Source of the DNA: a virus | IMG/VR virus record: IMGVR_UViG_3300023212_000175 | Location: 1-43,152 of that record | Reading direction: 5' to 3' (one strand) | DNA length: 43,152 bases | In this document: positions 1-43,152 of the stretch, in pieces | How the letters are laid out: the number at the start of each line of letters is the position of its first letter | Numbering within the stretch: the first letter of the stretch is position 1 | The notes under the pieces: model-generated | What the model was told of the DNA's origin: nothing | What the model saw: the letters and a program-made list of their open reading frames with translations, nothing else | Database searches by the model: none | Position numbers and translations under genes: made by a program

Positions 1-127
1 CCGGCCGTCCACCCGCTGTCCACCCGCCGAATGCGGCCCGAATTCGATCGAGCAAAACGCATAAATGCCGCGCTATCATAAGTTTACCCGTATTCAAAGC
101 CTCACTACCCCTATGTTCAAAAAAAAA
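1..127. repeat. Exact 127-bp terminal duplication, copy 1 (identical to 43026..43152)
   Basis: Compared base by base. ccggccgtccacccgctgtccacccgcc...ctatgttcaaaaaaaaa occurs at 1..127 and again at 43026..43152, ending exactly at the window edge. Confidence 0.95.
7..27 (+). repeat. Tandem decamer GTCCACCCGC x2 (7..16 and 18..27) between the divergent promoters
   Basis: Read directly. The copy at 43032..43052 exists only because of the terminal duplication. Confidence 0.8.
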
Positions 128-11068: not shown

Positions 11069-11315
11069 CAATATTAAAAGCTATGAAGTGGATGCCCTAA
11101 TTGATCCACTTGAAGGAGTACCCTTAAAATTTGAAACCCCACTAGGTCCATTAAGTGGGAGATTTAACATATATACGATTGCCGCAATGATAACCCTATG
11201 GGACGAAGAATTTTCTCCAAACGGAACAGTAGACATGGAGAAATTCTTGGGAAGGGAATTAATGTTTTTTGTGGAGAACAGCAAAGTGAAGAAAATCAGG
11301 AGGGTGCCATGCTGA
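11031..11315 (+). CDS. Hypothetical protein (start trimmed to ATG 11031)
   Basis: The ORF-track start at 10953 would overlap the previous gene by 116 nt. The start is uncertain. Confidence 0.5.
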   Translation: MEGQWIKAKLVTDNIKSYEVDALIDPLEGVPLKFETPLGPLSGRFNIYTIAAMITLWDEEFSPNGTVDMEKFLGRELMFFVENSKVKKIRRVPC

Positions 11316-11755
11316 AAATAAGCGTAGAAACGATACCCCACAGTTGTCAACGATATGACACAGTCGGAGATTGGACCTTTGAACCAGACGGAACGTTGAA
11401 TGTCAACGTCTCAAAGATCTTGAAAAGAGACGAGGAAATGTCTCAACAGTTAAAAGCGATTGTTGGAGAACATTGTACTGGAGCATTTCAAGAACTTGAG
11501 GATTTCGAATTCCTCGTTGCTATTCATGAAATCATCGAGGCTTGGCTTTGCAAAAAAGACGGAATAACGGCCGAACAAGTCGATGAGTGGGACAAAGGTC
11601 TTTCAGACGAAAGCCTATACGAAGAACCAGGAGAAGATCCCAGAGCACCATACCACATTCAACATCTAATTGCCACATCAATAGAAGTAATGCTGTGTGC
11701 GCAATTGAAATTGAATTGGGCGGAATACGACCAGCATGTAAAAAATGTCACCTAA
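11309..11755 (+). CDS. Conserved phage protein of unknown function (IPHxxQRYDTVGDW N-terminus)
   Basis: ATG 11309 lies 5 nt after AGGAGG (11298..11303). The ORF-track start at 11198 overlaps the upstream gene. Confidence 0.65.
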   Translation: MLKISVETIPHSCQRYDTVGDWTFEPDGTLNVNVSKILKRDEEMSQQLKAIVGEHCTGAFQELEDFEFLVAIHEIIEAWLCKKDGITAEQVDEWDKGLSDESLYEEPGEDPRAPYHIQHLIATSIEVMLCAQLKLNWAEYDQHVKNVT

Positions 11756-14207
11756 GTACGTTGGTGGTTGTGGTCCATCCACAGCAAAACTCGCGTTAGT
11801 TGGTGAGGCGCCTGGAGAAAGGGAAGAAGCTATAGGAATTCCCTTCTCCGGTCCTTCAGGAAAGCTCGTAGACGAATGTCTAGAAAGTGTAGGTATTTCT
11901 CGTGATTCAGTGTATCTTACCAATGTATGCAAAGTACGTCCACCTAACAATGATCTTAGGTTACTTAATCTTGTGGGTCACAAGTTGGATGATTTTATAC
12001 CGCAGTTACGAGAAGAACTGCGAAGCCTCAATCCGAACTGCATCCTTGCTATTGGTGCTACTGCTTTGTGCGCTCTTACTGGGCTGGATGGCATTAAGCA
12101 TTATCGTGGCAGCATATTGCAAACTGATCTAGGGATTAAACTAGTTTCAACCCTTCATCCTGCGGGTCTCTTGCACGCAGAATCTGAGGAATCGAAAATG
12201 CTCTCGTGGAAGGACCTAACATACATCAAATGGGACTTCGCGCGCGCCGTAGAAGAATCGAGATATCCTGAATATGATACTCCACACCGTAACCTCATTG
12301 CTTGCCGTAGTTCCATTGACTTATATCAATTTCTGGATCGTCATAAGAGTAAAACGATTGTTTCGGTCGACATTGAGACCTTTAGAACTATACCTATTTG
12401 CATTGCTCTTGCTTTTAGTCGAGACGAAGCAATTAGTATTCCACTTGTCAACATCCACGGCAATGTTATTCCTCGCTCTGATTTGGTCAATCTTTGGTTT
12501 GAAGTTGCTCGAATTCTAGCCGACCCGAAAATTAGGAAGGTAGGTCAGAATTTCAAATTCGATGAAAAGCAATCAGATGAGTGTGTAAACGGCACTCTAT
12601 TCTATGGTCTTAAGACGTATTCGTTTTGGTTCGATACTCTTTTAGCTTTTAGAACCTTATACCCAGAACTTCCTGGGAAACTTGAATTCATAACAAGCGT
12701 TTTAACAAGAGAACCTTATTATAAAGAAGAGGGCAAGGGTTTTAATCCTAAGAAAGATAAGTTCGATAGACTTCTTTTGTACAACGCCAGAGATGCTGCT
12801 GTTACATTTGAAGTTTATGAGAAAGAATTGGAGGAACTGAAAGATAGAAATCTTGAGCAGTTCTTCTTCACCCGAGTCATGCCATTGCATCCCTTTTATT
12901 CTCGTATTGAGGGTTGGGGAATTAAGAGGGATGCTTTCAAACAAAGATTTCTTCTGGAAAAGTATAAGGACAAGCTCAAAGAAGCGCAAGAAGAACTAGA
13001 TTCTCTTTGCGCGTCGTACATTGGGGACCGACGAATAAATGCAAATAGCAACAAAGACGTACCTTGGTTGTTTTTTGTAGTTTTAAAACTACCAGCGAGA
13101 AAGAGGACGGATGAAAAAACGATTGATTCCTTACTCAGAAACGTTGTTAAAGATACGGACAAACGAAGAATTCTTAAATTGGTTCTCCTTATTAGAAAAA
13201 TTAAGAAGACCATCGGAACTTATGTTGAGTGTAATCCGTCACCTGACGGACGAATCAGAACTTCGTTTAGGATTGCGTTGGAAACTGGACGAACATCAAC
13301 AGGGATTCTCAAGTCTCCTGTTACCACAGAACCAATGGGATGTGCTCTTCAAACGCTTACCAAGCACGGCGATGTTGGGTCTGATATTCGGTCGATGTAC
13401 GTACCTGACGAGGGATACGTTTTCCTGGAGCCCGATTTATCAGGAGCAGAGGCTAGAGTTGTTGCTATCTTGGCAAATGATCTTAAGTTGCAGAAGATCT
13501 TTGAATACAATCTGGACATCCACAGAATCACTTATGGATGGATTCAGGATATAGCTCCTAATAACCTTTTGGATGAATTTTTTCAATGTACTAATGTCTC
13601 AAGAATTCTTGAACTTAAAACAGCCATAAGTAGATACCTCAAAGAATTAATAGATGACGAAACAAGACAACTTGGTAAGAAATTCAGACACGCGGCTCAT
13701 TATGACATGGGTAAACGAGTTGCCTCAGAACTTACAGGTTTAAGCGAATGGCGTTGTGGTAAGATCTTGGAGAAAGTTCACGTTACAAATTCGAATATCA
13801 AGGGAGTCTTTCACAAAGGAATCCAAGATTGTCTCAAGAATAATGATCGCACTTTAACAAGTCCTCACGGCCGTGTTCGTCAGTTCCTTAATAAATGGGG
13901 CGATGAACTTTTTAAGGAGGCTTATGCCCAGATACCGCAGGCAACGGTATCTGATCAGACTAAATTCGCGGCCCAGAGAATTGAAAAGCGATGTCCTTAT
14001 ATAAAGATTCTCTCGGAATCTCATGATAGCTTCTTATCGATGGTTCCTATTCCTAAAGTGGACGAAGTTATTAAGGTCATAATGGAAGAAATGCAACAGC
14101 CTATTGACTTTTCCAAGTGCTCTCTTGGAGGAAACAAAGTCCTTGTAATACCGTGTGAAGTCAAAATTGGAAAAAACAATTGGGAAATAATGGAGAAAAT
14201 CGCATGA
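11745..14207 (+). CDS. Family A DNA polymerase with an N-terminal family-4 uracil-DNA-glycosylase-like domain and a 3'-5' exonuclease domain
   Basis: UDG4 motifs GEAPGEREEAIGIPFSGPSGKL and STLHPAGLL. Exo motifs VSVDIET, GQNFKFD and YNARDAAV. Pol motif A DLSGAEARVVA, motif B RQLGKKFRHAAHYDMG and motif C ESHDSF. Confidence 0.9.
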   Translation: MSPKYVGGCGPSTAKLALVGEAPGEREEAIGIPFSGPSGKLVDECLESVGISRDSVYLTNVCKVRPPNNDLRLLNLVGHKLDDFIPQLREELRSLNPNCILAIGATALCALTGLDGIKHYRGSILQTDLGIKLVSTLHPAGLLHAESEESKMLSWKDLTYIKWDFARAVEESRYPEYDTPHRNLIACRSSIDLYQFLDRHKSKTIVSVDIETFRTIPICIALAFSRDEAISIPLVNIHGNVIPRSDLVNLWFEVARILADPKIRKVGQNFKFDEKQSDECVNGTLFYGLKTYSFWFDTLLAFRTLYPELPGKLEFITSVLTREPYYKEEGKGFNPKKDKFDRLLLYNARDAAVTFEVYEKELEELKDRNLEQFFFTRVMPLHPFYSRIEGWGIKRDAFKQRFLLEKYKDKLKEAQEELDSLCASYIGDRRINANSNKDVPWLFFVVLKLPARKRTDEKTIDSLLRNVVKDTDKRRILKLVLLIRKIKKTIGTYVECNPSPDGRIRTSFRIALETGRTSTGILKSPVTTEPMGCALQTLTKHGDVGSDIRSMYVPDEGYVFLEPDLSGAEARVVAILANDLKLQKIFEYNLDIHRITYGWIQDIAPNNLLDEFFQCTNVSRILELKTAISRYLKELIDDETRQLGKKFRHAAHYDMGKRVASELTGLSEWRCGKILEKVHVTNSNIKGVFHKGIQDCLKNNDRTLTSPHGRVRQFLNKWGDELFKEAYAQIPQATVSDQTKFAAQRIEKRCPYIKILSESHDSFLSMVPIPKVDEVIKVIMEEMQQPIDFSKCSLGGNKVLVIPCEVKIGKNNWEIMEKIA

Positions 14208-14587
14208 AAATTTACTTAGCTTCGAATTACTCAAGCCACCCAGAAATGAGGAAATACAGAGCTTTTCTTGAATCAAAAGGGTTCAAAGTTACTTCGCGCT
14301 GGATAAACGGAGAGCATGAAGTCCTCGAAGGCCAAGATCATGAAATAAACTCCAAATTTGCTCAAGACGATTGGGAGGATATAAATGATTCCAATTTAGT
14401 TCTTTGGTTTTCAACGAACAAGTCAAATCGTGGACGAGGTGGTCGGCATGTTGAATTTGGAATTGCTCTTGCCTTAAGCATCGAGATAAGAGTAATCGGT
14501 AAGAAAGAAAATATTTTTCATTGGTTGCCTCAGGTGAAGCATTTTAAGAGTTTAGAGGACTCAATAAAGGATATAAGACCACTATGA
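14204..14587 (+). CDS. Nucleoside 2-deoxyribosyltransferase-like (Rcl/NDT-fold) protein
   Basis: MKIYLASNYSS at the N-terminus and GGRHVEFGIALAL near the C-terminus resemble the NDT/Rcl signature. ATGA overlap with the polymerase stop. The ORF-track start is 14180. Confidence 0.45.
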   Translation: MKIYLASNYSSHPEMRKYRAFLESKGFKVTSRWINGEHEVLEGQDHEINSKFAQDDWEDINDSNLVLWFSTNKSNRGRGGRHVEFGIALALSIEIRVIGKKENIFHWLPQVKHFKSLEDSIKDIRPL

Positions 14588-16677: not shown

Positions 16678-16886
16678 AACTTCTTGATCTAGTAGCAGAG
16701 GGTCATGAAGCTCCTGCAATCTCACGAATAATGCATATTTCGAGGTCAACGGTGCTAATTCATCGTCATAGAGTACGTCAAAAAATAGGTCTTAAGCCAG
16801 GAGATTCTTTGCGATTGTGGCTTAAGAACAATGGTTGGGATGTCTATTGGAGAGACGGAAAGGTATGGTCACCAAGTTGTGATTAA
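16635..16886 (+). CDS. LuxR/GerE-type helix-turn-helix transcription regulator
   Basis: TERELELLDLVAEGHEAPAISRIMHISRSTVLIHRHRVRQKIGL matches the LuxR C-terminal HTH. It is the last gene of the early arm. Confidence 0.8.
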   Translation: MAQGSRITFTERELELLDLVAEGHEAPAISRIMHISRSTVLIHRHRVRQKIGLKPGDSLRLWLKNNGWDVYWRDGKVWSPSCD

Positions 16887-18799
16887 TCTTTTTCCAATTT
16901 CTTGATTTCACGATCAGCCTTCACGATAAAGCCCTCCTTTTTAAGTCTTTGAACTGCTGCTTTAAGGCTCTCCCCACGAGCTTTAGCTTCAGCTCGAACC
17001 GCTTCAGGAAGGATAACTTTTTGTTCTTTTTTCGGCGTTTTCTCTTCTACAGTGATTTTACCTTTTCCACGATATTCGTACTCAGGAGCCTCTCCACCTT
17101 CTTTGAGGTGTGGATACTCCTTTAGAAGGTCGTCCACACTCATGTTCAGGGTATCCGCAACTTTCTTGAGTTCTTCGGCACTAGGCGCACCTTTCTTGGA
17201 CATTTGCAATGGTGGCTCGTAGGGTTTGCCAAGGTCTTTGAGGTTTTCGCGTTTTACATTGAACGGATTAGCACCAGCCTCTTCAGGTGGAGGTGGAATG
17301 TTTGCACCTTCTTGATAAAGCTGCAATCTTCTTTGCCTCGGAGTGTACATTCCGCTCTCGGACGCGCGCGCGAGGCCCTTTTTACCTCCGTAAACAGGAA
17401 CTTCACCGGCGGGGGGCATTGGAATCGCTCCTGTCCCCTGTGGAATTGCAGGACCCGTTGGTTGTGGTGGTTGATATTCTCCCGAGATTCCAGGACCTGG
17501 AGGTAATCCTTGAGCGGGTGGCATTTCTGTTGCCGGCTGTCCACCATAAAATGGACCTTTTTGTCCTCTGATATCAACAGAAGGAACGTTAAGAGCAGGT
17601 CTTCCTTGCGCCATCCCTCCCCAAGGATTGTAAGGACCACCTGAAGGAGCGGGTTCGGCATTAATGGGACCAGCATTCCTTTCGGGTACCGAAAAGTTTT
17701 GAAGACCTTGTTTAAAACCTCGAATCATTGCGGGTACCTTACTTCCAGCAAGGCCTCCCATGGCCATCCCAGGACCCGCGCCAACATAGTAAGGTAAGCC
17801 AAGACCGTGCGCTGCCCCCGCTCCGGCTGCCCCACCAGCCGCAGAACCAACAGCCGCTCCAGGCTTTGAATATCCAGGCTCGCTAAATGCACCGCGAGTT
17901 GCACTCGGAATAGCTGCTTCTGGATAAGCACGAGCGGCCGCTGGAATGCGAGATCCTAGACCCGCTTGACCAAGGCTAACCACCCAATCCGCAGCCTCTT
18001 CTGGTTTCATAGCTCCTCTAGAAGCCCTTAGGACGGAACCTAAAATAGGAATACTTTCGAGAGACATTCCCCTTTCGAGGCTCTCCGGAGTGACTACATC
18101 GCCCCCTCCAAAGCCAGTTCCAGTAGGACCTGAAATTACATTTTTGGGGTTCAACGCGCGCCCAATCGCTCCAGGAATGCCCTTGAAAACATTTGTAGCA
18201 TAGTTTTTGGTTGCTGTGACTGGGCTTGGGACCTCCTTAACGGCCGTACGTCCTTGTTGTTGAGCACCTTTAACAGCCCTAGTTCCTTCCTTTTTCTCCA
18301 GATTTCTGCGTGCATATTCCGTCCGAGCTAGTGCTTTTAATTCATCGTCAGAGGCATTATCGGGAGCATTAATTCTGAATTGTTCCCCTTTGACTTCAAG
18401 AACGTATTCCATGGGTTTTCCAGTACCTCCAACATAACCACCACCAAAGACAGAGTTCAAGTATTTTTGTGTTTCAGGAAAAGGAGGGACACCACCATAA
18501 CGGGTAACGGCACCAGGACCAGCATTATATGCTGCAACCGCAAGACGATCATCTCCAAATCGATCGGTAAGTTCTCGCAGATACTTAGCCGCGCCATCGA
18601 TTGCTTGTTCTGGATTTTTCGGATCTATACCAAGATACCCAGCCGTCTCCGGCATTATTTGAGCTACTCCCTGAGCACCTTTAGGAGAATCAGGGGTGTT
18701 AACATTTCCACGAGATTCAGCATGAATTATTCCAGCAAGAATACTCCTTTTTACTCCGTGCTCTTTAGAGCTTTTGTCAATCAATTCTTCAATAGTCAT
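16883..18799 (-). CDS. Internal virion/ejection protein with an N-terminal lytic transglycosylase (SLT) domain and a long Gly/Pro/Ala-rich C-terminal region (T7 gp16 analogue)
   Basis: SLT motifs: IIHAESRGN, GVAQIMPETAGYLG and VAAYNAGPGAV. It is the last gene of the late arm. The C-terminal two thirds are low complexity. Confidence 0.8.
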   Translation of the reverse strand: MTIEELIDKSSKEHGVKRSILAGIIHAESRGNVNTPDSPKGAQGVAQIMPETAGYLGIDPKNPEQAIDGAAKYLRELTDRFGDDRLAVAAYNAGPGAVTRYGGVPPFPETQKYLNSVFGGGYVGGTGKPMEYVLEVKGEQFRINAPDNASDDELKALARTEYARRNLEKKEGTRAVKGAQQQGRTAVKEVPSPVTATKNYATNVFKGIPGAIGRALNPKNVISGPTGTGFGGGDVVTPESLERGMSLESIPILGSVLRASRGAMKPEEAADWVVSLGQAGLGSRIPAAARAYPEAAIPSATRGAFSEPGYSKPGAAVGSAAGGAAGAGAAHGLGLPYYVGAGPGMAMGGLAGSKVPAMIRGFKQGLQNFSVPERNAGPINAEPAPSGGPYNPWGGMAQGRPALNVPSVDIRGQKGPFYGGQPATEMPPAQGLPPGPGISGEYQPPQPTGPAIPQGTGAIPMPPAGEVPVYGGKKGLARASESGMYTPRQRRLQLYQEGANIPPPPEEAGANPFNVKRENLKDLGKPYEPPLQMSKKGAPSAEELKKVADTLNMSVDDLLKEYPHLKEGGEAPEYEYRGKGKITVEEKTPKKEQKVILPEAVRAEAKARGESLKAAVQRLKKEGFIVKADREIKKLEKD

Positions 18800-28616: not shown

Positions 28617-29888
28617 TTAATAACCAGCAGGAACGGCTAAATTGTCGATATAAGCGGCTGCAGCTGGATTGTTCATGTAGAGATTGAACGATGCGACGAT
28701 GTAGAAAATCCACGATGTCGCAACTCCACCGGTACCTCCTCGAATTTCCCAGACCCTTTGGTTATTATCAGGATTCTGGTAGAAGCCAGGAGGATGAAGC
28801 TCCGCGCGGCCCCAAACTTCAGTGTCGATGAAATCAATTCTCGTTCTATCCCAAGAATACGAGACTTTCAACGGAGCGCCGGCAATCCGCATGTTGTCAT
28901 TGAAGTAAAGGTCTAAACCTTCTTCCTTGGCTTCTTTGTTAATGATTGTCGCCTGGAAGCCTAGTTCTTCGTAAGCTTGCTGTTGTGCCGGATGGGTCCA
29001 CGCCGTTGTCTTTCCACGTTGCTTGATTCCGACACGATCACCGATCTTATTGACGGCTAATCGTGGTAGAGGAAGTGTCAAAGCGGAACCATTGCCGTTG
29101 ACTCGATTCGCCCTAATTTCGGGGTTAAGGCTTCTATCGAAACCGAGCCAAGTCCCCGTGCTAGCATTAGAATCGTGATACTTGATTCCAAGCATTCCAG
29201 TTGGGGGGGTTGACTGCAAACCAGAAGCGACAACCAAATCGGTCGCTGTAGCACCCGCGACGCTCGGAGTTACAGCGATCGTCTTATTTGCTAGGTCATA
29301 AAGAGTGATCGTCGATTCGTTGGAGGGACCTCCACCAGTTCTAACTGTCGTCAGCGTAGAATTGAAAACGTTAACATTCTGACCGAAACGCAACAAACGC
29401 GCACCAAAACCGTCAGTGGTCATCGTGTAAGTATCCACGCCTCCCGATGTCGAAACGGAAGTGATGGTACCTAGAGTTCCAGTGCCGTCTGTCATACACT
29501 GCGAGTCGACTTGTCGTCGGAATTCTTTCATCGCGGTCGACAGATTATGTCGAAATGCATTTAAAACGGCCTTTCGATTGTTATCCGTCGCCCACATGGT
29601 CTTTGAGGTGAATTCAACCGCATGACGAAGGTGAACCGAGTTAATAATCGCCTTGTCAAAGGTTGGCATGTCACCACGTCCAAGATCTCCGCCATCTGGA
29701 TTGTAATATCCGAACTTGCCACCTGGACGCATTTCAAGAGGTGCCCTCATATCTCTCGCTGAGATCACCTCAACTGGGCGCTTCTCAATCGTTGCATAGA
29801 AAACGTCATCACGATCGAAGAGCGCCGGAACCTTGGGAAGTACTCGTTCGAGTTCAGCTCCCACTACCTGGGTCTCGTTGCCCGCCAT
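28617..29888 (-). CDS. Major capsid protein (putative, HK97-fold expected)
   Basis: 423 aa, immediately downstream of the scaffold-like gene. Called on size and position; no motif was verified. Confidence 0.6.
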   Translation of the reverse strand: MAGNETQVVGAELERVLPKVPALFDRDDVFYATIEKRPVEVISARDMRAPLEMRPGGKFGYYNPDGGDLGRGDMPTFDKAIINSVHLRHAVEFTSKTMWATDNNRKAVLNAFRHNLSTAMKEFRRQVDSQCMTDGTGTLGTITSVSTSGGVDTYTMTTDGFGARLLRFGQNVNVFNSTLTTVRTGGGPSNESTITLYDLANKTIAVTPSVAGATATDLVVASGLQSTPPTGMLGIKYHDSNASTGTWLGFDRSLNPEIRANRVNGNGSALTLPLPRLAVNKIGDRVGIKQRGKTTAWTHPAQQQAYEELGFQATIINKEAKEEGLDLYFNDNMRIAGAPLKVSYSWDRTRIDFIDTEVWGRAELHPPGFYQNPDNNQRVWEIRGGTGGVATSWIFYIVASFNLYMNNPAAAAYIDNLAVPAGY

Positions 29889-29891
29889 AAT

Positions 29892-31124
29892 TTATTTCCT
29901 GTATGTGATGTTATCGTTGATAATATCGTCGTCAGAGGTTTTATTGTAATCAATCCTACCTGTGATTCCAGAAGAATTCCTAGACTCACGTGCAGGAGAT
30001 CCAGTACCACGACGAACGCCATCAACTACTTCCTTTGTTCTAGCAGCTCGGCGTTGAGAAGTCCCATTAGCCTCTGCCACTATTTTCGCACGGACAGCCG
30101 GAACGAGCTGACGGGCGCGCGCCAGGTACGCGGAAGTAATTCTGGACTTCCAATCACTCGTGTAACCATCCTTCTTTGCCTTAGACCACAAAGAATCCAT
30201 ATAGCGGAGATGTTCTCTATCCGCTCCCATTTGGTCGTCGACCTCTTTATTAATCTTCTCCACGAGTGTGTCGACCATCCATCTGGAGAAGACTCCCTCT
30301 GGATCGAGACGAAGACTACCGTTCTTGTCCTTAGAGAGAATGACAGATTTAACCTGACCCTTGATGTCAGAACTGATGTCTCCGGTGAAAGCCTTTAAAC
30401 GGTCGGACTCAAATTTGACACGTTCAGGATCCGTCTTCGATTCAGCAGCCCGAGGAACATACGATTTCTTTCCATCGAGAATATCCTGAGCATCGTTCCC
30501 GAACAAGAACTTCGCCATCAAAAGAGCTGCTTTTTTGGTGTCCTCATTGCCCGGTGCACTTTCTGCGAAAGCTTTGACCATGTTCTCCATCAAAGGATTA
30601 GCCGCAGCCCAATGTGCTTTCTCGTCAACCTTATACAACGCCGGCATAATGTTTGAAGCAAATTTAAGAAGAGCGGCTTCGTCAGTCTTTTTAACGGCCG
30701 CGAGGAATCCAGAGCCGTCGTCGTTGAAAATGCTTTGACGGGCTTCTTGAAGGGCCACGGAATCATCTTGTGCGGTTCTCGCGTCTTCAATTGAAGAGAA
30801 GAGCTCATTAAAAGCTTTCTCTCGGAAGAGAACATCGCGGAGCACGGGGAACTTTTTGAAGAGGTCCGGGAAAGCCTCTTTAATATCAGTTAAAGTTGGA
30901 CGTTCGTGCGGGAGAAGTTCCCTTGGTTTTGCGGAGGCTTCCCTTTCCTCCCGTTCTTCTTCGGTCTCCTCGACCACTTCTTCTTCTTTTTCTTCAACTT
31001 CTGGTGTAGCCGCATCAGCTGGAGGTTGTTCGTCTTCCTGTTCGAGAAACTTAACATCGTCGCTAATACCTGTCGTTCCTTCGAGAGAATCTGGAGATTT
31101 CAAAATGTCTTTTAGGCCAAACAT
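29892..31124 (-). CDS. Scaffolding protein (putative)
   Basis: 410 aa and helical. It has a strongly acidic N-terminal region (EQEDEQPPADAATPEVEEKEEEVVEETEEEREEREAS) and lies directly upstream of the capsid gene. Confidence 0.55.
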   Translation of the reverse strand: MFGLKDILKSPDSLEGTTGISDDVKFLEQEDEQPPADAATPEVEEKEEEVVEETEEEREEREASAKPRELLPHERPTLTDIKEAFPDLFKKFPVLRDVLFREKAFNELFSSIEDARTAQDDSVALQEARQSIFNDDGSGFLAAVKKTDEAALLKFASNIMPALYKVDEKAHWAAANPLMENMVKAFAESAPGNEDTKKAALLMAKFLFGNDAQDILDGKKSYVPRAAESKTDPERVKFESDRLKAFTGDISSDIKGQVKSVILSKDKNGSLRLDPEGVFSRWMVDTLVEKINKEVDDQMGADREHLRYMDSLWSKAKKDGYTSDWKSRITSAYLARARQLVPAVRAKIVAEANGTSQRRAARTKEVVDGVRRGTGSPARESRNSSGITGRIDYNKTSDDDIINDNITYRK

Positions 31125-32398
31125 AACGATTCATCCTCAATCTTATCGTACATATCAGGTAAAACTTTCGCAAGATCGGTACGATATTGTTTATCTGGAA
31201 TTTTTACCTCTTCAAGAACGTCGTAACACTGTTTTAAAGCATCTTCACAATTACCATCGGCGAAAGAAACAACAGCGATGGCCCCCGTGCCAGAAGAATG
31301 GTATAAGCATTCGTCTTCCTGAAATACTTCATAGTAATAATAATTCTCATCGTATTCTTCAGGCAAACGAATAGGGAGTCCACAAGATGGCGATATCTTG
31401 TCTATCTTTTCGATATCCGCTGATTTCTTAGTCTCGATTGGGTACGGCGGGATAGTGAGCCGCACTCCACCGGCGTAAACGTCCTCGGCGGGAAATTCCT
31501 CCGTCACTCCTTGACAAAGATCTGAAATGAACTTTCCTAGGTCTTTGCTAAAAAGCTGTAAGAGGGTTGGCATAGCGTCGAGTCCGAATCGAGGTGTCCA
31601 TTCGAGTCCATAGACATTCTCTCCATCGCAGATTGTGTTAAGATCGATCGGTCCAATGTATCCATTTTCGATTAACTTTTTTTCTGCTTTGAGAATTCCT
31701 TTATCAAGAATCGGAGAATCTTCACAAAGCCAAACAAGATTGCCGCTGCAACCAGTAGAAGGACCAAGGTCGTCATTGAGAAATTTTTTAACCTCGACCG
31801 TTTGGTTACCCGGACGAACAAAGCCGTGCGGGCCGCACCAGAACTCTGATGAAACTACAGCGCCTTCAACGAAGCGCTGTAGGACGAAATCATCTAGAAG
31901 ATCTTTGTAATTCCTTTCCACGTATTGCATGTATGTCGTTAAGTCTTCTGAGTCTTCTCCGATATACGTTAATTTAGATGGTAAGTCTCCAGAAGGCTTA
32001 AAAACGAACTTTTCCTTTGATTTCGAGAGAAATTCGTACGCCTTCTTGAAGTCGGTCCCCTTAAAACGATGTGTCTCAGGAGTTCGTATTCCACAAGATT
32101 CCATAAACTCCAGTCCGAAACCTCTTGAATTTTCAAGATTATCGTGAAACTTGGAACCCGAGAAAACTCGAAGACCCCGGCGACGATACTCGTCTGCTTC
32201 CTTTCCAGATCCAGTTGAGTCGAAAATAACGATCTCATCCCGGGTAGGGTTACAAGTCTTCTCCTTTTTGAGGATGCCATCATAGACATTATAATATTCC
32301 TTTTCCTTCACGTAAACACGACAGGAATTCCCCTCCCTTTGCAGTCGGAGCAAAAGCCCGCAACCCTCACCGCATTTTGACATCATAAAGAACTTCAT
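31112..32398 (-). CDS. ATP-grasp ligase, divergent PurD (phosphoribosylamine-glycine ligase)-like
   Basis: Segments matching PurD along the whole length: ENSRGFGLEFMESCGIRTPE, FVFKPSGDLPSK, VLQRFVEGAVVSSEFW, VKKFLNDDLGPSTGCSG (PurD has GPNTGGMG) and YGLEWTPRFGLDA (PurD has RFGDPE). Confidence 0.75.
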   Translation of the reverse strand: MKFFMMSKCGEGCGLLLRLQREGNSCRVYVKEKEYYNVYDGILKKEKTCNPTRDEIVIFDSTGSGKEADEYRRRGLRVFSGSKFHDNLENSRGFGLEFMESCGIRTPETHRFKGTDFKKAYEFLSKSKEKFVFKPSGDLPSKLTYIGEDSEDLTTYMQYVERNYKDLLDDFVLQRFVEGAVVSSEFWCGPHGFVRPGNQTVEVKKFLNDDLGPSTGCSGNLVWLCEDSPILDKGILKAEKKLIENGYIGPIDLNTICDGENVYGLEWTPRFGLDAMPTLLQLFSKDLGKFISDLCQGVTEEFPAEDVYAGGVRLTIPPYPIETKKSADIEKIDKISPSCGLPIRLPEEYDENYYYYEVFQEDECLYHSSGTGAIAVVSFADGNCEDALKQCYDVLEEVKIPDKQYRTDLAKVLPDMYDKIEDESLCLA

Positions 32399-32724
32399 TA
32401 ACCGTACTCTAAAACCGCTTGAAATTTCTGGGATGCCGCTTGTCCGGCTAAAAAATAATCTTTAAGACAAATAATATTTTTCAGCTCGGAACGATTCAGA
32501 ATAGTTCCACCTGCCGCGATTGCTGGACCTGATGTATTAGCGAAATTCGCATCCGCCAGCTTCACGGTCGACGCGTTTCCAGCGTCTGCCGTTAATTGAC
32601 ATCCGGTACAACGATCAGGAAGTATACCATCAGTCGGAGTCGCACCAGTGACGCCAAGCAAGGACGTATAAAGCTGATGAAAGTTAGTATCAGCTGGTAG
32701 AGTAACTGTGAAAACGCGTTGCAT
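32398..32724 (-). CDS. Hypothetical 108-aa protein, translationally coupled to both the portal and the ATP-grasp gene
   Basis: Its start overlaps the portal stop and its stop overlaps the ATP-grasp start (ATGA-type junctions). It ends ...AVLEYG. Confidence 0.6.
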   Translation of the reverse strand: MQRVFTVTLPADTNFHQLYTSLLGVTGATPTDGILPDRCTGCQLTADAGNASTVKLADANFANTSGPAIAAGGTILNRSELKNIICLKDYFLAGQAASQKFQAVLEYG

Positions 32725-34916
32725 TATGCGACCTTTCCTGGAATCGTTTGCTCGTCTGGTGGTGTTGGTGGTAATGCCCCAGGAGCACCATTTGGTTTAG
32801 GTTGCTGAGGTTTAGGTCCTGCGGTGGGAGGGGGTTTCAATCCCTGCAGGTGACCCTGTAAATGCTGCTGCATTAACGCGTAAACTTTTGGCTGAGTTCG
32901 TTTGATTTCCTGTCCTGGAGAATCAGCTAAGTAATTGCGTAAAGTCTCCGCATGAATTGAATGATCATCAACGAGATTGTCAACTGGAATATTGTTACCT
33001 TTCCGCATCTCGTTAATTTCAACCATTTGCAAGCTTCTCTGAACCTCCCCCGGTATCTTGAAATCCGGATTAGAAAGATAATCGGCAAGTAACCTTCTAT
33101 TTTCCGGAGAATATAACGCTGTATTGAGGAACTCGTTGTTCATCTCCATGAGTTTCATTAAAAGCGCCTGCTTCTGAGGGAGGCTCAACGGGAAACTTTC
33201 GGAGCCTTCAGATTCAACTTCACCAACTTTACCGGTTGTCTCTGCCCTACGAATCCAGACATTAACGTAGTTACCTGAAGCCTCCTTAACAACATAGCGT
33301 TCGTCTTCGATCATGTTTTCAACGAACAAATGAACACACTTCTCCAACATTCGAGCGACCCAATCGACTACAAAGGACCAACAAATTGAAAGTCTTTGAA
33401 GAGCCATTTGACGGCTCATGTTATATTCTGCCGCCGTTCTTGATTTTCCTTCAGCAGCTCCTCCGTAAATCGAAGGGAAACTTCCTGTAACAAACTGGCC
33501 CATTTGTTCAAGCTGTTTACTGAAACCAGCAAGCTCTCTTGATAAGGTAGCTCTATTTCCTTCATAGAACGCATCAGCAAGACGCTGACCCGTTCTGGGT
33601 CGGGCCGGAAAGACGAATCCTGGTCTTGCCTCATGTCGAGAATAGACTTCAAAATTGAGAACTCCAGGATCTGCAAAAGTGCTAGGTATTCCGTGTTCGA
33701 TTGTTTCTTCCGTAAGATTAAGATGGACATTAGTTATCTCCTGGATAGGAATTAGGGGTTGTCCCAACGGGTCCGAGTGAATATACTGACTTAAACCCGC
33801 TTGACCGATTGTCCAATATTTGTCCAGGTCTTCATCTCTACTCTCAGCATAAGTAGTTCCCACATACGCGACGTAAGCACCATTAGGAAAAAGCTTCTGC
33901 AACTGCTTTTGTTCTTCTTTTTTCTCCGGAGGTAGACCCTCGAAAGCCCAAGGACGTAACCACCACTGCTTTAACGTTAGGAGATTACGATTTTCGTCAA
34001 TAGTATTGTAAGACGAATAACTCGAAGGAGTCCTTGCCAACTTCTCATACATTCCCTGTTCGCCCTCATCTTTTCGGAGGTCATCTGCGATGTGGGGATA
34101 CAAATGCTTCAAGAACTCGCGCGGCCGGTCTGTATTGAGACTTAAGTAAGGTGTATCTTTTTGCGTTCTCGAATAGTAAGAGACCTTGACGAAAAGAGGA
34201 CCATAACACTCGATCATGACCCTAGATTTTGGACTTTTCTGGAAGTCGTCCAGAACGGGAACCATTTTCATTGGCTGTCCACAAGTCGGGCAGGGCATAC
34301 CGTCGAATGCTTCATCCTCTCCGATCGGTTTCTCCATCTCGCAATTCATGCAAGTGAGACTTTCTTTGTAATTCGGTATGTTAATCTCACCAAATGCCTT
34401 ATCCGCCCTCGGTGCATGATAAGCGCAAACGATCCCTTGATTCCAAAGGAGGAAGAGAGAACGAAGAAATAGAATTTTGAACTTATTATGCCGCATTATT
34501 AAATCGGCAATTTTGGCGTAGACCTGAGATGTTGTAATGTCTTCATCATCGTCGGCATCATCAGGAGGGAACCTGACCGCCGGTATGTTTGCTGACAAAG
34601 CCGCAATAATTGCCTCTCCGTGAGCGCGGTAAATATTAGCCACGAAATCGTAAAACGGACCCTCAGCTTCCTCCCGACCCTCTTCTTCCTGATACCAACG
34701 TGTATCAGTTGGACTGATCCAGTCTTGACGTGATTCCGACCAAAAAATAAACTGTATTCCATGCCAAAACTCATCATTCTTCTTCCAGAGCTTAATTTGC
34801 TGTTTACGAATCCACGCATCCTCTTTTTCGTATTTGTCTATAAGCTCCTTAAGACAGTCCTGCAACTCCTTCGGCAACTTTTCGTTGTTTTGACCGTATT
34901 TTGGCTTTGGACTCAT
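32724..34916 (-). CDS. Portal protein (putative) with an inserted Cys4 zinc ribbon and a Pro-rich C-terminal tail
   Basis: 730 aa, the largest head-module protein upstream of scaffold and capsid. It carries CMNC-x16-CPTC at aa 189..212. Called on position and size. Confidence 0.55.
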   Translation of the reverse strand: MSPKPKYGQNNEKLPKELQDCLKELIDKYEKEDAWIRKQQIKLWKKNDEFWHGIQFIFWSESRQDWISPTDTRWYQEEEGREEAEGPFYDFVANIYRAHGEAIIAALSANIPAVRFPPDDADDDEDITTSQVYAKIADLIMRHNKFKILFLRSLFLLWNQGIVCAYHAPRADKAFGEINIPNYKESLTCMNCEMEKPIGEDEAFDGMPCPTCGQPMKMVPVLDDFQKSPKSRVMIECYGPLFVKVSYYSRTQKDTPYLSLNTDRPREFLKHLYPHIADDLRKDEGEQGMYEKLARTPSSYSSYNTIDENRNLLTLKQWWLRPWAFEGLPPEKKEEQKQLQKLFPNGAYVAYVGTTYAESRDEDLDKYWTIGQAGLSQYIHSDPLGQPLIPIQEITNVHLNLTEETIEHGIPSTFADPGVLNFEVYSRHEARPGFVFPARPRTGQRLADAFYEGNRATLSRELAGFSKQLEQMGQFVTGSFPSIYGGAAEGKSRTAAEYNMSRQMALQRLSICWSFVVDWVARMLEKCVHLFVENMIEDERYVVKEASGNYVNVWIRRAETTGKVGEVESEGSESFPLSLPQKQALLMKLMEMNNEFLNTALYSPENRRLLADYLSNPDFKIPGEVQRSLQMVEINEMRKGNNIPVDNLVDDHSIHAETLRNYLADSPGQEIKRTQPKVYALMQQHLQGHLQGLKPPPTAGPKPQQPKPNGAPGALPPTPPDEQTIPGKVA

Positions 34917-36177: not shown

Positions 36178-36544
36178 TCTCGACCCTTTCATTTCGCGCG
36201 CGCCAATGCTTTTCAGTAGCGTCAACCTGCTGTTTCGCTTTAGAGCGTTGCGCGTCCATTCTCTCAAGTCGTTGTCTCCTTGACGTCCAGGACTCGCCAC
36301 CCGTTTTGATCGGCTGAACATTCTTGTCTTCTAATCTAACCTCTCCTTGTACTTGATTGATTCCTGAAACTTCAAAGAGTTTTTCCCTGAACAAAGTCCC
36401 CTCATCACTAAGCTCTTTGATCCTCTCTCGGAGGGAGGCGATCTCGACATCCTTAGCAGTTATGAGCTGGTTCAGGACGGAAGCCTGTTTCTCAAGATCA
36501 CTCGCCGTGCTCCCCCCGAGAATTTTTATGAACCAATTTTTCAA
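36170..36544 (-). CDS. Coiled-coil protein
   Basis: 124-aa ORF that is charged and helical. ATGA-type coupling to the upstream gene. Confidence 0.55.
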   Translation of the reverse strand: MKNWFIKILGGSTASDLEKQASVLNQLITAKDVEIASLRERIKELSDEGTLFREKLFEVSGINQVQGEVRLEDKNVQPIKTGGESWTSRRQRLERMDAQRSKAKQQVDATEKHWRARNERVENA

Positions 36545-36921
36545 AATGTCCCCACTACTGGAGTGGCGCTATTGACCGTCGCTTGTAACGTAAACGGAGC
36601 CACGCTCGTTATATTAATAATTACGGTTGCAGCGTTCGTCCCGGTGTTAATTTGGAACGTCAACGCCCACGGAAGAGTGACTGTGTTCGGAACTGTAAAT
36701 TGAGGTATTGTGACACCATCAGCCGTGATGGGTCCAATCGTCAAGACCTTAGCTGGAAATGTGTCACCGATGATAGTGAAAGCAACGGCCTGAGGAGTTC
36801 CAGGAGAAACGTTAATTACTACCTTCGCTGGAGATGCTGGAACAGCGGGGGAACCAGGAGTAAACGTTGCTTGCGCGGCCGCGCTCAAATAAAATAAGAA
36901 AAGCAATATTGCTAACTTCAC
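36541..36921 (-). CDS. Secreted beta-rich (Ig-like) protein with a cleavable Sec signal peptide
   Basis: MKLAILLFLFYLSAAAQA|TF has an n-region, a hydrophobic core and an AxA site. There is no lipobox Cys. Its start overlaps the TerL stop. Confidence 0.6.
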   Translation of the reverse strand: MKLAILLFLFYLSAAAQATFTPGSPAVPASPAKVVINVSPGTPQAVAFTIIGDTFPAKVLTIGPITADGVTIPQFTVPNTVTLPWALTFQINTGTNAATVIINITSVAPFTLQATVNSATPVVGTF

Positions 36922-38519
36922 TGTATTCTCCTTGAATGAAATCTTCGTACAGGAATAATTTCTTTATCTGCTTTCATCGCCTCGATATGTTCCATTTGAC
37001 GATGTAACGAAGTCCAATCCTTAGTCTTCTCAAAACTCTCAAGAACGGCTCCGATTACTTTTCTCTGGTCACCTTCTTCTCTGAGTTGTCCGAGAAGAGT
37101 ATCGGCCTCCTCAACCATATAACGCGCGCAATCATACGGATCGTCTCCATCGAACTCTTTAACGTCTTCACTTGGTTTTCCGTCTGGAGTTTTCTTACCG
37201 TAGATGCACAGAGGAATGCACTTGCGAAATTCAACGCAGTTTTCAAAGACTTGGAGTTTTGGTAAATTCGTTTCCGGAACTTCCGGCTCGAAGGAGGTAA
37301 CGTAGTCTTTGTAGGCGTCGAGACCTTGAATACGCATTATTCGTTGCGCGGCTTCATTGGAGAATTCACCGTTAATATTCTTACTTTGAGGCTTAGCCGT
37401 CCATCTTAAGTACTCTTGAAGGAGCAATTTACCGTGAATCCTATCGTTCTTCGCTTCCTCAAACTCAATGTTGGAATATTTTCTGGCCTTATCGGCCATT
37501 ATGATGTCATCTTCCCCGCGATTTTGCCAAGCAGAGCGACAGAGCACGGCCCTTGAAAATCGTTCAGAGTCAGAAAGTTTTCCTATCTCACTCGCCCACT
37601 CCGAAGTCTTCTTACCTTTCTGAGCATATTCCCGGTACAAAAATAAGCGATCATTAGGACTGAGAGCGCCCCAAAGACCAACAGTAAAAGCATTAAAACC
37701 CCAGTCAACGGAAATAATACGTGTCCACCAATCCGGAATCGGAAAAGGTTTGATAACATGAAGTGCGTGCTCTGGTTCTCCGGGTATATTGTTTTCTCTC
37801 CAATCGGTGAACACTTGACCCTCAAACGTGTACCAATCGCCGTCAAGCTTCGCGCGCCTCTCAGCTTCAGGGAGAGCCATCAAGCGGTTCACATAATTCG
37901 GATCGATGTGGGGATTATCTTTAAGAAGGCACTGAATAAAGATTCTCTTTAGGGTCGTTCTACGATCAAGGATGATTGTTCCCCATGGAGCGGGCTCAAC
38001 AAAATAACCGCGCACCCACGCATGACCAACATTACCAGGATTTGTTCCTGAACGAACAATAACTGGTAGATTAGAACTTTTCCTGGTCCGCATTCTTGAG
38101 TTAACAAAATATTTGTATTGGAATTCTGTAAAAGATGTTAGTTCATCAAACGCGGCGAATTGGTATTCATCAGTGTCGTATTTTCGTACGTCGTTCTCAT
38201 ATTCCATATGACCGAAACGAATTACGGCACCAGAACCGAAAACCCAACGCCTTTTCTCTTCATGATACTGTCCCCCGAAATGTGGGTACCACTCTCTTGA
38301 GCGGCCGATGATTTCCGTTTCAAGCTCTGGATAAGTCCTTCTAAAGAGAATTCCCTTGAAGTACGGATTCTTGTGAAAGCCGCGCAAAACTGGGAGCATG
38401 ACCAGGAGATCGGATTTCCCTCCTCCAGCCGCGCCCCCGTACATAGCTTCGAAAATGGAATCTGGAAGACCCGCAAAGAGTTCTTGTTTCTTGTGCGGCT
38501 TCCACTCTTTAGTTAGCAT
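36918..38519 (-). CDS. terL: Terminase large subunit
   Basis: Walker A YGGAAGGGKS, Walker B FAAFDELT and a C-terminal nuclease-sized domain. 533 aa. Confidence 0.85.
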   Translation of the reverse strand: MLTKEWKPHKKQELFAGLPDSIFEAMYGGAAGGGKSDLLVMLPVLRGFHKNPYFKGILFRRTYPELETEIIGRSREWYPHFGGQYHEEKRRWVFGSGAVIRFGHMEYENDVRKYDTDEYQFAAFDELTSFTEFQYKYFVNSRMRTRKSSNLPVIVRSGTNPGNVGHAWVRGYFVEPAPWGTIILDRRTTLKRIFIQCLLKDNPHIDPNYVNRLMALPEAERRAKLDGDWYTFEGQVFTDWRENNIPGEPEHALHVIKPFPIPDWWTRIISVDWGFNAFTVGLWGALSPNDRLFLYREYAQKGKKTSEWASEIGKLSDSERFSRAVLCRSAWQNRGEDDIIMADKARKYSNIEFEEAKNDRIHGKLLLQEYLRWTAKPQSKNINGEFSNEAAQRIMRIQGLDAYKDYVTSFEPEVPETNLPKLQVFENCVEFRKCIPLCIYGKKTPDGKPSEDVKEFDGDDPYDCARYMVEEADTLLGQLREEGDQRKVIGAVLESFEKTKDWTSLHRQMEHIEAMKADKEIIPVRRFHSRRIQ

Positions 38520-43025: not shown

Positions 43026-43152
43026 CCGGCCGTCCACCCGCTGTCCACCCGCCGAATGCGGCCCGAATTCGATCGAGCAAAACGCATAAATGCCGCGCTA
43101 TCATAAGTTTACCCGTATTCAAAGCCTCACTACCCCTATGTTCAAAAAAAAA
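43026..43152. repeat. Exact 127-bp terminal duplication, copy 2 (identical to 1..127)
   Basis: See the entry for 1..127. Confidence 0.95.

Follow-up and report, generated by a model that had tools for sequence, protein, structure and literature searches.

The DNA analysed here is a viral sequence of 43,152 nt (IMG/VR record IMGVR_UViG_3300023212_000175, taken at its full length and called the window below), in which a gene for a 428-amino-acid (aa) ATP-grasp ligase resembling PurD, the glycinamide ribonucleotide (GAR) synthetase, lies among the genes for head morphogenesis. It is firmly supported that this ligase is phage-restricted, accessory and mobile, is expressed with head genes, is often paired with a small protein family designated F9, and acts on substrates other than those of PurD. 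A perfect direct repeat of 127 nt was found at the two ends of the window (1-127 and 43026-43152), and assembly of a circular genome with k=127 leaves an overlap of just this length. Because of this repeat the window was taken as a complete, circularly assembled phage genome of ~43,025 bp; no tRNAs were found in it. Its minus strand carries a contiguous late operon that runs from the gene for the terminase large subunit (TerL) through several small genes to those for the portal, a 108-aa protein, the ligase, a 410-aa protein and the major capsid protein (MCP). The main features are listed below, with ORF standing for open reading frame and JGI for Joint Genome Institute.

36918..38519, minus strand: TerL, which opens the packaging and head gene block
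32724..34916, minus strand: portal protein, 730 aa, from the structural match of its model
32398..32724, minus strand: 108-aa protein, an ORF coupled through TAATG to both portal and ligase
31112..32398, minus strand: PurD-fold ATP-grasp ligase, 428 aa, from the ORF, its motifs, profile matches and an AlphaFold model
29892..31124, minus strand: putative scaffolding protein, 410 aa, from position and composition
28617..29888, minus strand: MCP, 423 aa, matching phrog_14242 (1.8e-9)
11309..11755, plus strand: F9-family protein, 148 aa as called by JGI (E = 4e-42); the ORF opens at 11198

The portal stop and the start of the 108-aa gene share a TAATG junction with a 1-nt overlap, the same junction joins the stop of the 108-aa gene (whose product ends in ...LEYG) to the start of the ligase gene, and the ligase stop overlaps the start of the putative scaffold gene by 13 nt (ATGTTTGGCCTAA). 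This chain of starts and stops is exactly the one given in a preliminary description of the same DNA. Promoter-like and terminator-like sites within the head block showed no excess over the shuffled expectation.

The preliminary description had placed the ligase between the portal and scaffold genes, and on the portal side this placement was confirmed through the predicted structure. The 730-aa protein gave zero sequence matches to any portal family in profile searches; its model (56 homologues; predicted local distance difference test, pLDDT, 73) matched podophage portals only among the PDB entries, namely those of Pa223, N4, SU10, VP1, DEV and P22 (best E = 2e-14), and for this reason it was identified as the portal. 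Residues 189-212 of this protein (window ~34281-34352, minus strand) form a CxxC...CxxC zinc-ribbon insertion which is conserved across the portal family and looked unusual for a portal, and because of it some portal homologues are annotated as zinc-finger proteins. On the scaffold side, the 410-aa protein had no match in any profile library searched. Its N-terminus is acidic and of low complexity, its core is helical, and its basic C-terminus contains a conserved DYxKTSDxDI motif; from its position and these two termini it can reasonably be taken as the scaffold.

Relation of the ligase to PurD

The similarity of the ligase to PurD is real but weak. The protein scored 25.9 bits against PF01071 (cut-off 27), 22.9 bits against PF02843 (cut-off 34.8) and 59.9 bits against TIGR00877 (cut-off 288), its identity to E. 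coli PurD was 16-22%, and the similarity in sequence began only near residue 67. Profile searches matched PurD only, and the best sequence match in the PDB was the PurD of A. aeolicus (3.6e-11, or 9.5e-26 with the family profile). An AlphaFold model built with 119 homologues reached a pLDDT of 94.2 and a predicted template modelling (TM) score, pTM, of 0.91. When it was compared with the PDB by Foldseek, the top 15 matches were all PurD, full-length, at TM 0.70-0.77 and 16-20% identity; biotin carboxylase, PurK and PylC followed well behind, and no RimK or TTL entry was present among the top 50 matches. Viral TTL-like proteins matched weakly (TM about 0.3), and no close structural relative was found in BFVD. 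The resemblance of the N domain to that of PurD is visible only in the model and not in the sequence. Since the model can be laid end to end over 15 PurD structures, the ligase is a complete enzyme with the same four-domain N-B-A-C fold as PurD (TIGR00877; PF01071, PF02843; PDB 2YW2, 1GSO, 2QK4).

For the residue comparison, 196 family members (~30-100% identity) were aligned together with E. coli PurD by MAFFT, and the roles of the PurD residues were taken from PMC2978367 and PMC8880213. In human PurD the glycine is held by Asp217, Arg292, Asp295 and Glu297. Arg13 and Arg292 form a phosphate site together with a helix dipole, Arg385 is located at the other site proposed for phosphate, and Glu14 has been proposed as the residue that orients the ribose (PMC2978367); in A. 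aeolicus PurD, ATP is bound by Lys103, Lys143, Glu185, Glu192 and Lys214 (PMC8880213). The catalytic set of the ligase comprises R92, K134, E202, K204, D252, N254, E266 and R270, the first four being equivalent to Lys105, Lys145, Asp214 and Lys216 of PurD. K134, N254 and R270 occur in 196/196 members, R92 and E266 in 195/196, and K204 and D252 in 192/196; E89, E202 and G272 are also essentially invariant. Thus the lysines for the ATP phosphates, the Mg ligands and the catalytic arginine that stabilises an acyl-phosphate, which are the features of an active ATP-grasp enzyme, are all kept. Also shared with PurD are the E-x-[SD]-[KR] motif (E89, R92), K134, the Lys of D/E-x-K (K204), the G-P-x-T-G loop, E266, R270-F-G, the equivalent of G-Y-P (Y319-P320) and R406-x-D408.

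The residues for the glycine amino group and the phosphate, in contrast, were lost. The altered motifs already noticed in the preliminary description, GPSTGCSG (residues 212-219) and RFGLDA (residues 270-275), were found to belong to a replacement of PurD substrate residues across the whole family. Position 273 (E. coli D293; human D295) is Tyr in 164, Phe in 14 and Leu in 13 of the 196 members, and position 275 (E. coli E295; human E297) is Ala in 158, Ser in 22 and Gly in 6, the hidden Markov model and hhalign alignments agreeing on the replaced acids at these two glycine-site positions. At position 373 (E. coli R383), where the correspondence is backed by two independent alignments, the family has Val, Ile, Leu, Phe or Trp. 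Position 11 (E. coli R11) is Asp in 90 and Glu in 51 of the 196 members and never Arg, and the equivalent of E. coli Glu12 is Gly, Ser or Ala. The PurD residues for the glycine amino group and phosphate were replaced in 196/196 members.

The family has near-invariant residues of its own in D60, in Cys217 (181/196), in Thr268 (180/196), which takes the place of the Mg-ligand Asn of PurD, and in D252 and N254, an extra Mg-site pair where PurD has Tyr and Gly. Its signatures are GPSTGC (with C217), LEWTPRFG[YL]DA, IPPYP and YRTD. Judged by these residues, the ligase is not PurD and would not make glycinamide ribonucleotide; it is predicted to be a catalytically competent ATP-grasp carboxylate-amine ligase that forms a phage-restricted sister family of PurD. 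With Tyr/Leu and Ala in place of the Asp/Glu ligands of the glycine amino group, the carboxylate substrate would seem to be something other than a free small alpha-amino acid, and a cationic amine substrate is suggested by acidic residues at four positions (11, 60, 86 and 91).

That the gene is nevertheless a genuine PurD, carried by the phage as an auxiliary metabolic gene of purine synthesis, was the least credible of the explanations considered. PurD gives the best matches in sequence and structure, many homologues bear the JGI name 'phosphoribosylamine--glycine ligase', and viral purD has been counted as an auxiliary metabolic gene (PMC12043954, PMC11097641, PMC12647753). However, a score of 60 bits faces a curated threshold of 288 bits, the identity to E. 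coli PurD is low, and the replaced glycine-amino and phosphate residues extend to every aligned member. A Pfam scan of 29 ORFs detected no further purine-pathway gene in the complete genome, and the family, unlike PurD, is phage-restricted, always lies in virion operons and has no purine-pathway context, with only three loci in cellular genomes, all of them phage-like and in metagenome-assembled genomes (MAGs). The earlier suspicion that this is not a plain purine auxiliary gene was therefore borne out, and the ligase is regarded as a PurD-fold enzyme that has taken on a new function. Hundreds of family clusters are labelled 'phosphoribosylamine--glycine ligase', and metagenomic surveys count viral purD as a purine gene; where such calls belong to the ligase family, the ecological inferences about purines are probably wrong, because the residues argue against the GAR reaction.

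Distribution and genomic settings of the family

A word-indexed search returned 898 homologues, many of them on contigs of 43-48 kb, and an exhaustive search returned, as clusters at 50% identity, 1464 at E<=1e-3, 874 at <=1e-10 and 332 at <=1e-30. The 898 homologues and the 874 clusters show that the ligase is a real gene under selection. Only the three MAG loci mentioned above were found in 185,579 species genomes. When four diverse members were compared by tblastn with 50,697 phage records, no cultured phage with a family member was found; the only full-length alignment was in the uncultured MW202796, and the remainder were PurD-level matches in unannotated records. The family is large and almost restricted to phages. 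As no member is cultured, there is no virion proteome for any of them.

Five long homologues (P0176, P0216, P0235, P0220 and P0217) contain inteins, each with Hint and LAGLIDADG homing endonuclease parts. The insertions occur at three sites, all within catalytic signature motifs: between GPSTG and C217, between LEW and T268, and directly after TPR270. Intein placement of such a kind is typical for active-site motifs of proteins that are important to the phage. Apart from the inteins, the long homologues had no informative extra Pfam domain, no MuF or portal fusion and no capsid-targeting peptide. The ligase protein itself is compact, PurD-sized and without an N-terminal extension.

For the neighbourhood survey, 80 viral loci were collected, their ORFs were clustered and the recurrent families were annotated. 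The ligase was found in the following gene orders:

Lineage a (that of the window), about 29 loci: portal, 0 to 4 variable genes, ligase, scaffold, MCP
Lineage b, 10 loci: TerL (phrog_38), F40, F9, ligase, portal (phrog_145), scaffold (phrog_206)
Lineage c, 28 loci: low-complexity proteins of 400-670 aa, small basic protein, ligase, in some cases F9, protein of 1000-1570 aa
Lineage d, 8 loci: TerL (phrog_675), ligase, T7-type portal (PF12236)

In lineage c, convergent replication genes lie beyond the protein of 1000-1570 aa. The portal, the scaffold, F9 and the neighbours in lineage c were not identified in sequence by Pfam, PHROGs, NCBIfam, PADLOC, PDB profiles or hhalign. In all lineages surveyed the ligase was always within late or virion operons, often beside the portal, and no small precursor or carrier next to it was conserved across them. 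The coupling to the head module that the first account had stressed was seen in the lineage of the window, where the order ligase-scaffold-MCP is kept in ~26 related loci, but elsewhere the ligase stands beside unrelated portals or large uncharacterised late proteins, and its coupling to the scaffold is thus specific to that lineage.

The three portal families were mutually unrelated (hhalign probability below 1%). The mean identity of the ligases was 45.5% between lineages a and b and 50.1% within lineage a, the a-b values overlapping the range within a. Lineages a and c shared only primase, DNA polymerase, F9 and the ligase, and no homologue of the virion genes of the window was detectable in c. 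Because the portals are unrelated while the ligases of a and b are 45.5% identical, and because a and c have so few genes in common, the ligase has been exchanged between unrelated virion modules. A strong mosaicism of replication and structural modules was also seen when the lineage c loci L044-L085 were set against the window.

Lineage a was then re-sampled from the portal side to find loci without the ligase. The gene was present in L096, whose MCP is 70% identical to that of the window, and was absent from TerL to past the MCP in L095 and L097, whose MCPs are 74-75% identical and whose portals are 52-54% identical. In these two loci an unrelated beta-helix protein of 482-485 aa, with a signal or lipoprotein-like N-terminus, lies directly upstream of the scaffold gene (L095:9444-10901, L097:10807-12255). 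The contig carrying P0369 also lacks the ligase and has the same gene sizes as L095 and L097. Locus L094 has other genes in this place, L024 has a beta-helix protein plus the ligase (slot occupant at L024:5598-6953), and the portal-scaffold interval of other lineage a loci holds two GDSL lipases or other large genes (a further slot occupant lies at L004:3176-5988). The portal-scaffold interval is a hypervariable accessory slot, and the ligase is an accessory gene that is present or absent among phages with closely similar capsid proteins (MCP 70-75% identical).

The 108-aa protein is one variable occupant of the same slot. It had been proposed as one of the virion components that the ligase might modify or cross-link, and it was considered as a C-terminal acceptor. 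This candidate was rejected: the 108-aa family occurs in only part of lineage a, and its C-termini vary (...LEYG, ...TIEP, ...SIIAN, ...FISK).

These absences also bear on the idea that the ligase is a core head-morphogenesis factor, such as a chaperone that uses ATP for assembly or a protein that catalyses capsid maturation, which is essential for making heads. The tight translational coupling and the order ligase-scaffold-MCP in ~26 related loci speak in its favour. We nonetheless regard this role as very improbable, for the gene is missing from the TerL-to-MCP region of relatives with the same portal, scaffold and MCP families, and other lineages pair the ligase with entirely different head genes. 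Since relatives with an MCP 74-75% identical do without it in that region, the ligase is not required to build or to cross-link this capsid.

Two further proteins of the late operon were noted. Between TerL and the portal region lies the gene for a protein of 126 aa (window 36541-36921, minus strand) that starts with a clear signal peptide (MKLAILLFLFYLSAAAQA); relatives have similar small secreted proteins (family F30) in their head modules. The distal end of the operon encodes a 638-aa protein (window 16883-18799, minus strand) which has an N-terminal SLT lytic transglycosylase domain and resembles podophage internal or ejection proteins.

The recurrent neighbour F9

No gene is found beside the ligase family more often than F9. 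The F9 protein has ~125 aa, among which His48, Tyr53, Gly57, Asp58, His110-Glu111-x-x-Glu114, Asp132, Pro151-Tyr152, His156, Glu163 and Trp174 are invariant or nearly so; no match was found for it in Pfam, PHROGs, PADLOC or the PDB. Its invariant set of His, Asp and Glu residues makes it a probable small metal-dependent enzyme.

Counted from the side of the ligase, 26 of 84 loci had F9 no more than 1.4 kb away on the same strand, and in 17 of the 84 F9 was directly adjacent; it also adjoins the ligase in L087 and L091. It lies upstream of the ligase in some lineages and downstream in others, and adjacency that persists while the gene order flips is a usual sign of functional linkage. The loci with F9 span L021-L087, L091 and L098-L177, plus the window. 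Counted from the side of F9, in 80 independent loci, a strong member of the ligase family was found within 500 nt in 20, a divergent relative was adjacent in 17, which brings the F9 loci with a directly neighbouring ligase to 37 of 80, and an ATP-grasp match was found further off within 10 kb in 12. The divergent neighbours (in L099, L104, L105, L110, L114-L119, L142, L150, L151, L157, L159, L173 and L176) are 420-450 aa long and align collinearly with the ligase family, without the GPSTGC loop. They may form another subfamily within the same two-gene module, one that has diverged further.

In the window itself F9 is on the plus strand, unlinked to the ligase, between the genes for a DNA methylase and the DNA polymerase, and the same arrangement was found in L093. 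The polymerase gene (window 11745-14207, plus strand) encodes a family A DNA polymerase in which an N-terminal domain of the uracil-DNA-glycosylase superfamily is fused to 3'-5' exonuclease and polymerase domains, an architecture also present in L093. Just downstream of it, window 14180-14587 (plus strand) gave a sub-threshold match to PF05014, nucleoside 2-deoxyribosyltransferase (21.4 bits, cut-off 28.8). In L090, F9 lies ~1.2 kb from an anti-defence gene of the Acb2/Tad1 type.

Possible substrates and comparison with known systems

Ligases that are ~45% identical, with an invariant pocket, occur beside unrelated portal, terminase and scaffold proteins, and the gene is dispensable for the capsid of the window; because of this the substrate is expected to be independent of the particular virion proteins of the phage. 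The explanation that we prefer, though at somewhat short of an even chance, is that the ligase acts on such a substrate with F9 as its second component. Late in infection, Mg-ATP would be bound between the B and A domains of the ligase, a carboxylate would be phosphorylated to an acyl-phosphate stabilised by R270, and the acyl group would then be passed to an amine to give an amide. The amine pocket would be lined by C217, Tyr/Leu273, Ala275 and the acidic positions 11, 60, 86 and 91. F9 would likely make, trim or present the substrate, which may be a small molecule, a conserved component of the host or the DNA during its packaging, and the late, portal-proximal placement of the gene would allow the ligase to be loaded into the head and delivered with the DNA. 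It is more tentatively suggested that the ligase and F9 form an undescribed mobile two-component system for the ATP-driven attachment of an amide-linked group to a macromolecule (a virion protein, the packaged DNA or a host target), a proposal that we hold to be possible but rather doubtful. If it is true, it would be a new kind of phage-encoded covalent modification which is hidden in the databases as 'purD'.

Several observations weigh against the joint action of the ligase and F9 on a substrate unrelated to the virion. In 31 of the 80 F9 loci there was no ligase within 10 kb, and the 17 divergent neighbours of F9 were only weakly family-like (31-61 bits; hhalign E = 9e-5, probability 59%). 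The ligase and F9 need not be paired, because in the window F9 is ~20 kb away, on the other strand and in the replication module. In no lineage was the ligase among early genes, although this might be expected in some of them if the substrate were unrelated to the virion. The absence of the ligase in L095 and L097 covers the 14-16 kb from TerL to past the MCP rather than whole genomes. The match of positions 11 and 12 to PurD comes from a MAFFT alignment in a part where sequence similarity is undetectable, with the register of the strand and helix in agreement; and any chemistry more specific than that of an ATP-grasp ligase is what we infer.

The preliminary description had instead favoured a covalent modification or cross-linking of a virion component. 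An optional form of this idea was retained, although we consider it unlikely: while heads are assembled, the ligase would use ATP to attach an amino acid, a peptide or an amine to the capsid, scaffold, portal or 108-aa protein, or would cross-link one of these. The gene belongs to the head operon, where translational coupling links it to the scaffold gene and to the genes on the portal side, the ligase adjoins portals in three lineages, and the scaffold combines long acidic tracts with a basic tail. The ATP-grasp enzymes RimK, LysX and TTL modify proteins and provide precedents. Against it, phages with a 74-75% identical capsid protein were found without the gene, the ligase moves between unrelated head modules while its pocket stays invariant, and neither a conserved adjacent small protein nor a conserved C-terminal acceptor was seen; the idea of a virion target is weakened by this combination of a dispensable, mobile gene with an invariant pocket and no conserved virion partner. 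In addition, the fold is closest to those of PurD, PurK and biotin carboxylase, with RimK and TTL missing from the top 50 PDB matches, and F9 lies outside the virion module in the genome of the window.

A packaged effector would be a sub-variant of the explanation based on the ligase and F9: the enzyme would enter the procapsid by way of the portal or the scaffold core, would be ejected with the DNA and would modify a conserved host molecule early in infection, like T4 Alt and IPI*, the P1 Dar proteins or MuF-fused enzymes. We rate this, too, as improbable, at the same level as the optional virion modification. In lineage a the ligase stands between portal and scaffold, which is the position of the head-incorporated gp7/MuF protein in SPP1 and Mu. 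Elsewhere its neighbours are large late proteins of low complexity, together with the protein of 1000-1570 aa, and those in lineage c are putative internal proteins. The portal fold groups with those of N4, SU10 and Pa223, and at least N4 ejects its virion RNA polymerase, which is an internal protein (PMC13492108). Enzymes encoded beside terminase or portal genes are probably co-synthesised and packaged (PMC9503650), a contextual rule that fits the portal-side placement, and the accessory status, horizontal mobility and phage restriction of the ligase fit a host-directed function. Opposed to this are the lack of a MuF or portal fusion or a targeting extension among the long members examined, the compact, PurD-sized form of the enzyme, the uncultured status of all members, which leaves them with no virion proteome, and the lack of similarity to known defence-system components. 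As the ligase is compact, confidently modelled and has a defined pocket, these competing explanations can be tested directly.

When the preferred explanation, the ligase acting with F9, is set beside other ATP-grasp systems, PurK offers a likeness in context. It is among the next-best structural matches and typically lies beside a small partner gene, purE, as the ligase has a small partner; F9 itself was considered as a PurE and rejected, as it had no Pfam match. The E-W-T-P-R of the ligase resembles the E-x-[SA]-P-R of PurT and PurK and not the E-F-N-x-R of PurD. Unlike for PurT and PurK, profile searches with the ligase match PurD only, and no ribonucleotide-binding residues were identifiable in it. 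RimK, LysX/ArgX with LysW, TTL and the graspetide/microviridin ligases have the same superfamily chemistry, in which an acyl-phosphate is followed by an amide or ester. The ligase differs from RimK, LysX and TTL in having no conserved adjacent carrier or acidic C-terminal acceptor, the small proteins upstream of it varying by locus, and from the graspetide ligases in having no conserved short flanking ORF or precursor peptide across the lineages.

Among phages, Iyer and colleagues reportedly described in 2009 an early-gene cluster of an amidoligase, a glutamine amidotransferase, an ATP-grasp enzyme and a gamma-glutamyl-cyclotransferase in LUZ24-like and HMO-2011-like phages. This cluster likewise combines a phage ATP-grasp enzyme in an amide-forming role with linked partner enzymes (PMC3890496). 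Its ATP-grasp protein is about 290 aa long, belongs to the early genes and does not have the PurD fold, whereas the ligases described here are 420-450 aa long, lie in late operons and are accompanied by F9. With regard to placement, the SPP1 gp7/Mu F slot, T4 Alt/IPI* and P1 Dar are non-essential genes of head operons near the portal or scaffold, some of them enzymatic and delivered with the DNA, and the portal-scaffold slot in lineage a is hypervariable like such cargo slots, holding GDSL lipases, beta-helix proteins and small secreted proteins; the ligase has no homology to SPP1 gp7/Mu F, T4 Alt/IPI* or P1 Dar and no MuF or targeting domain.

In a search of the literature no description of a PurD-like ligase in a head module was found, and the known phage ATP-grasp systems, which are the early-gene amidoligase/glutamine amidotransferase/ATP-grasp cluster, the R2K family and the RNA ligases, differ from it. 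A family that is large, conserved, intein-targeted and phage-restricted points to an unexplored late-phase ATP-dependent ligation in many environmental phages. While the PurD fold and ATP-grasp catalysis are already known, what is new here is an ATP-grasp family with a new partner protein and a distinctive context in virion operons.

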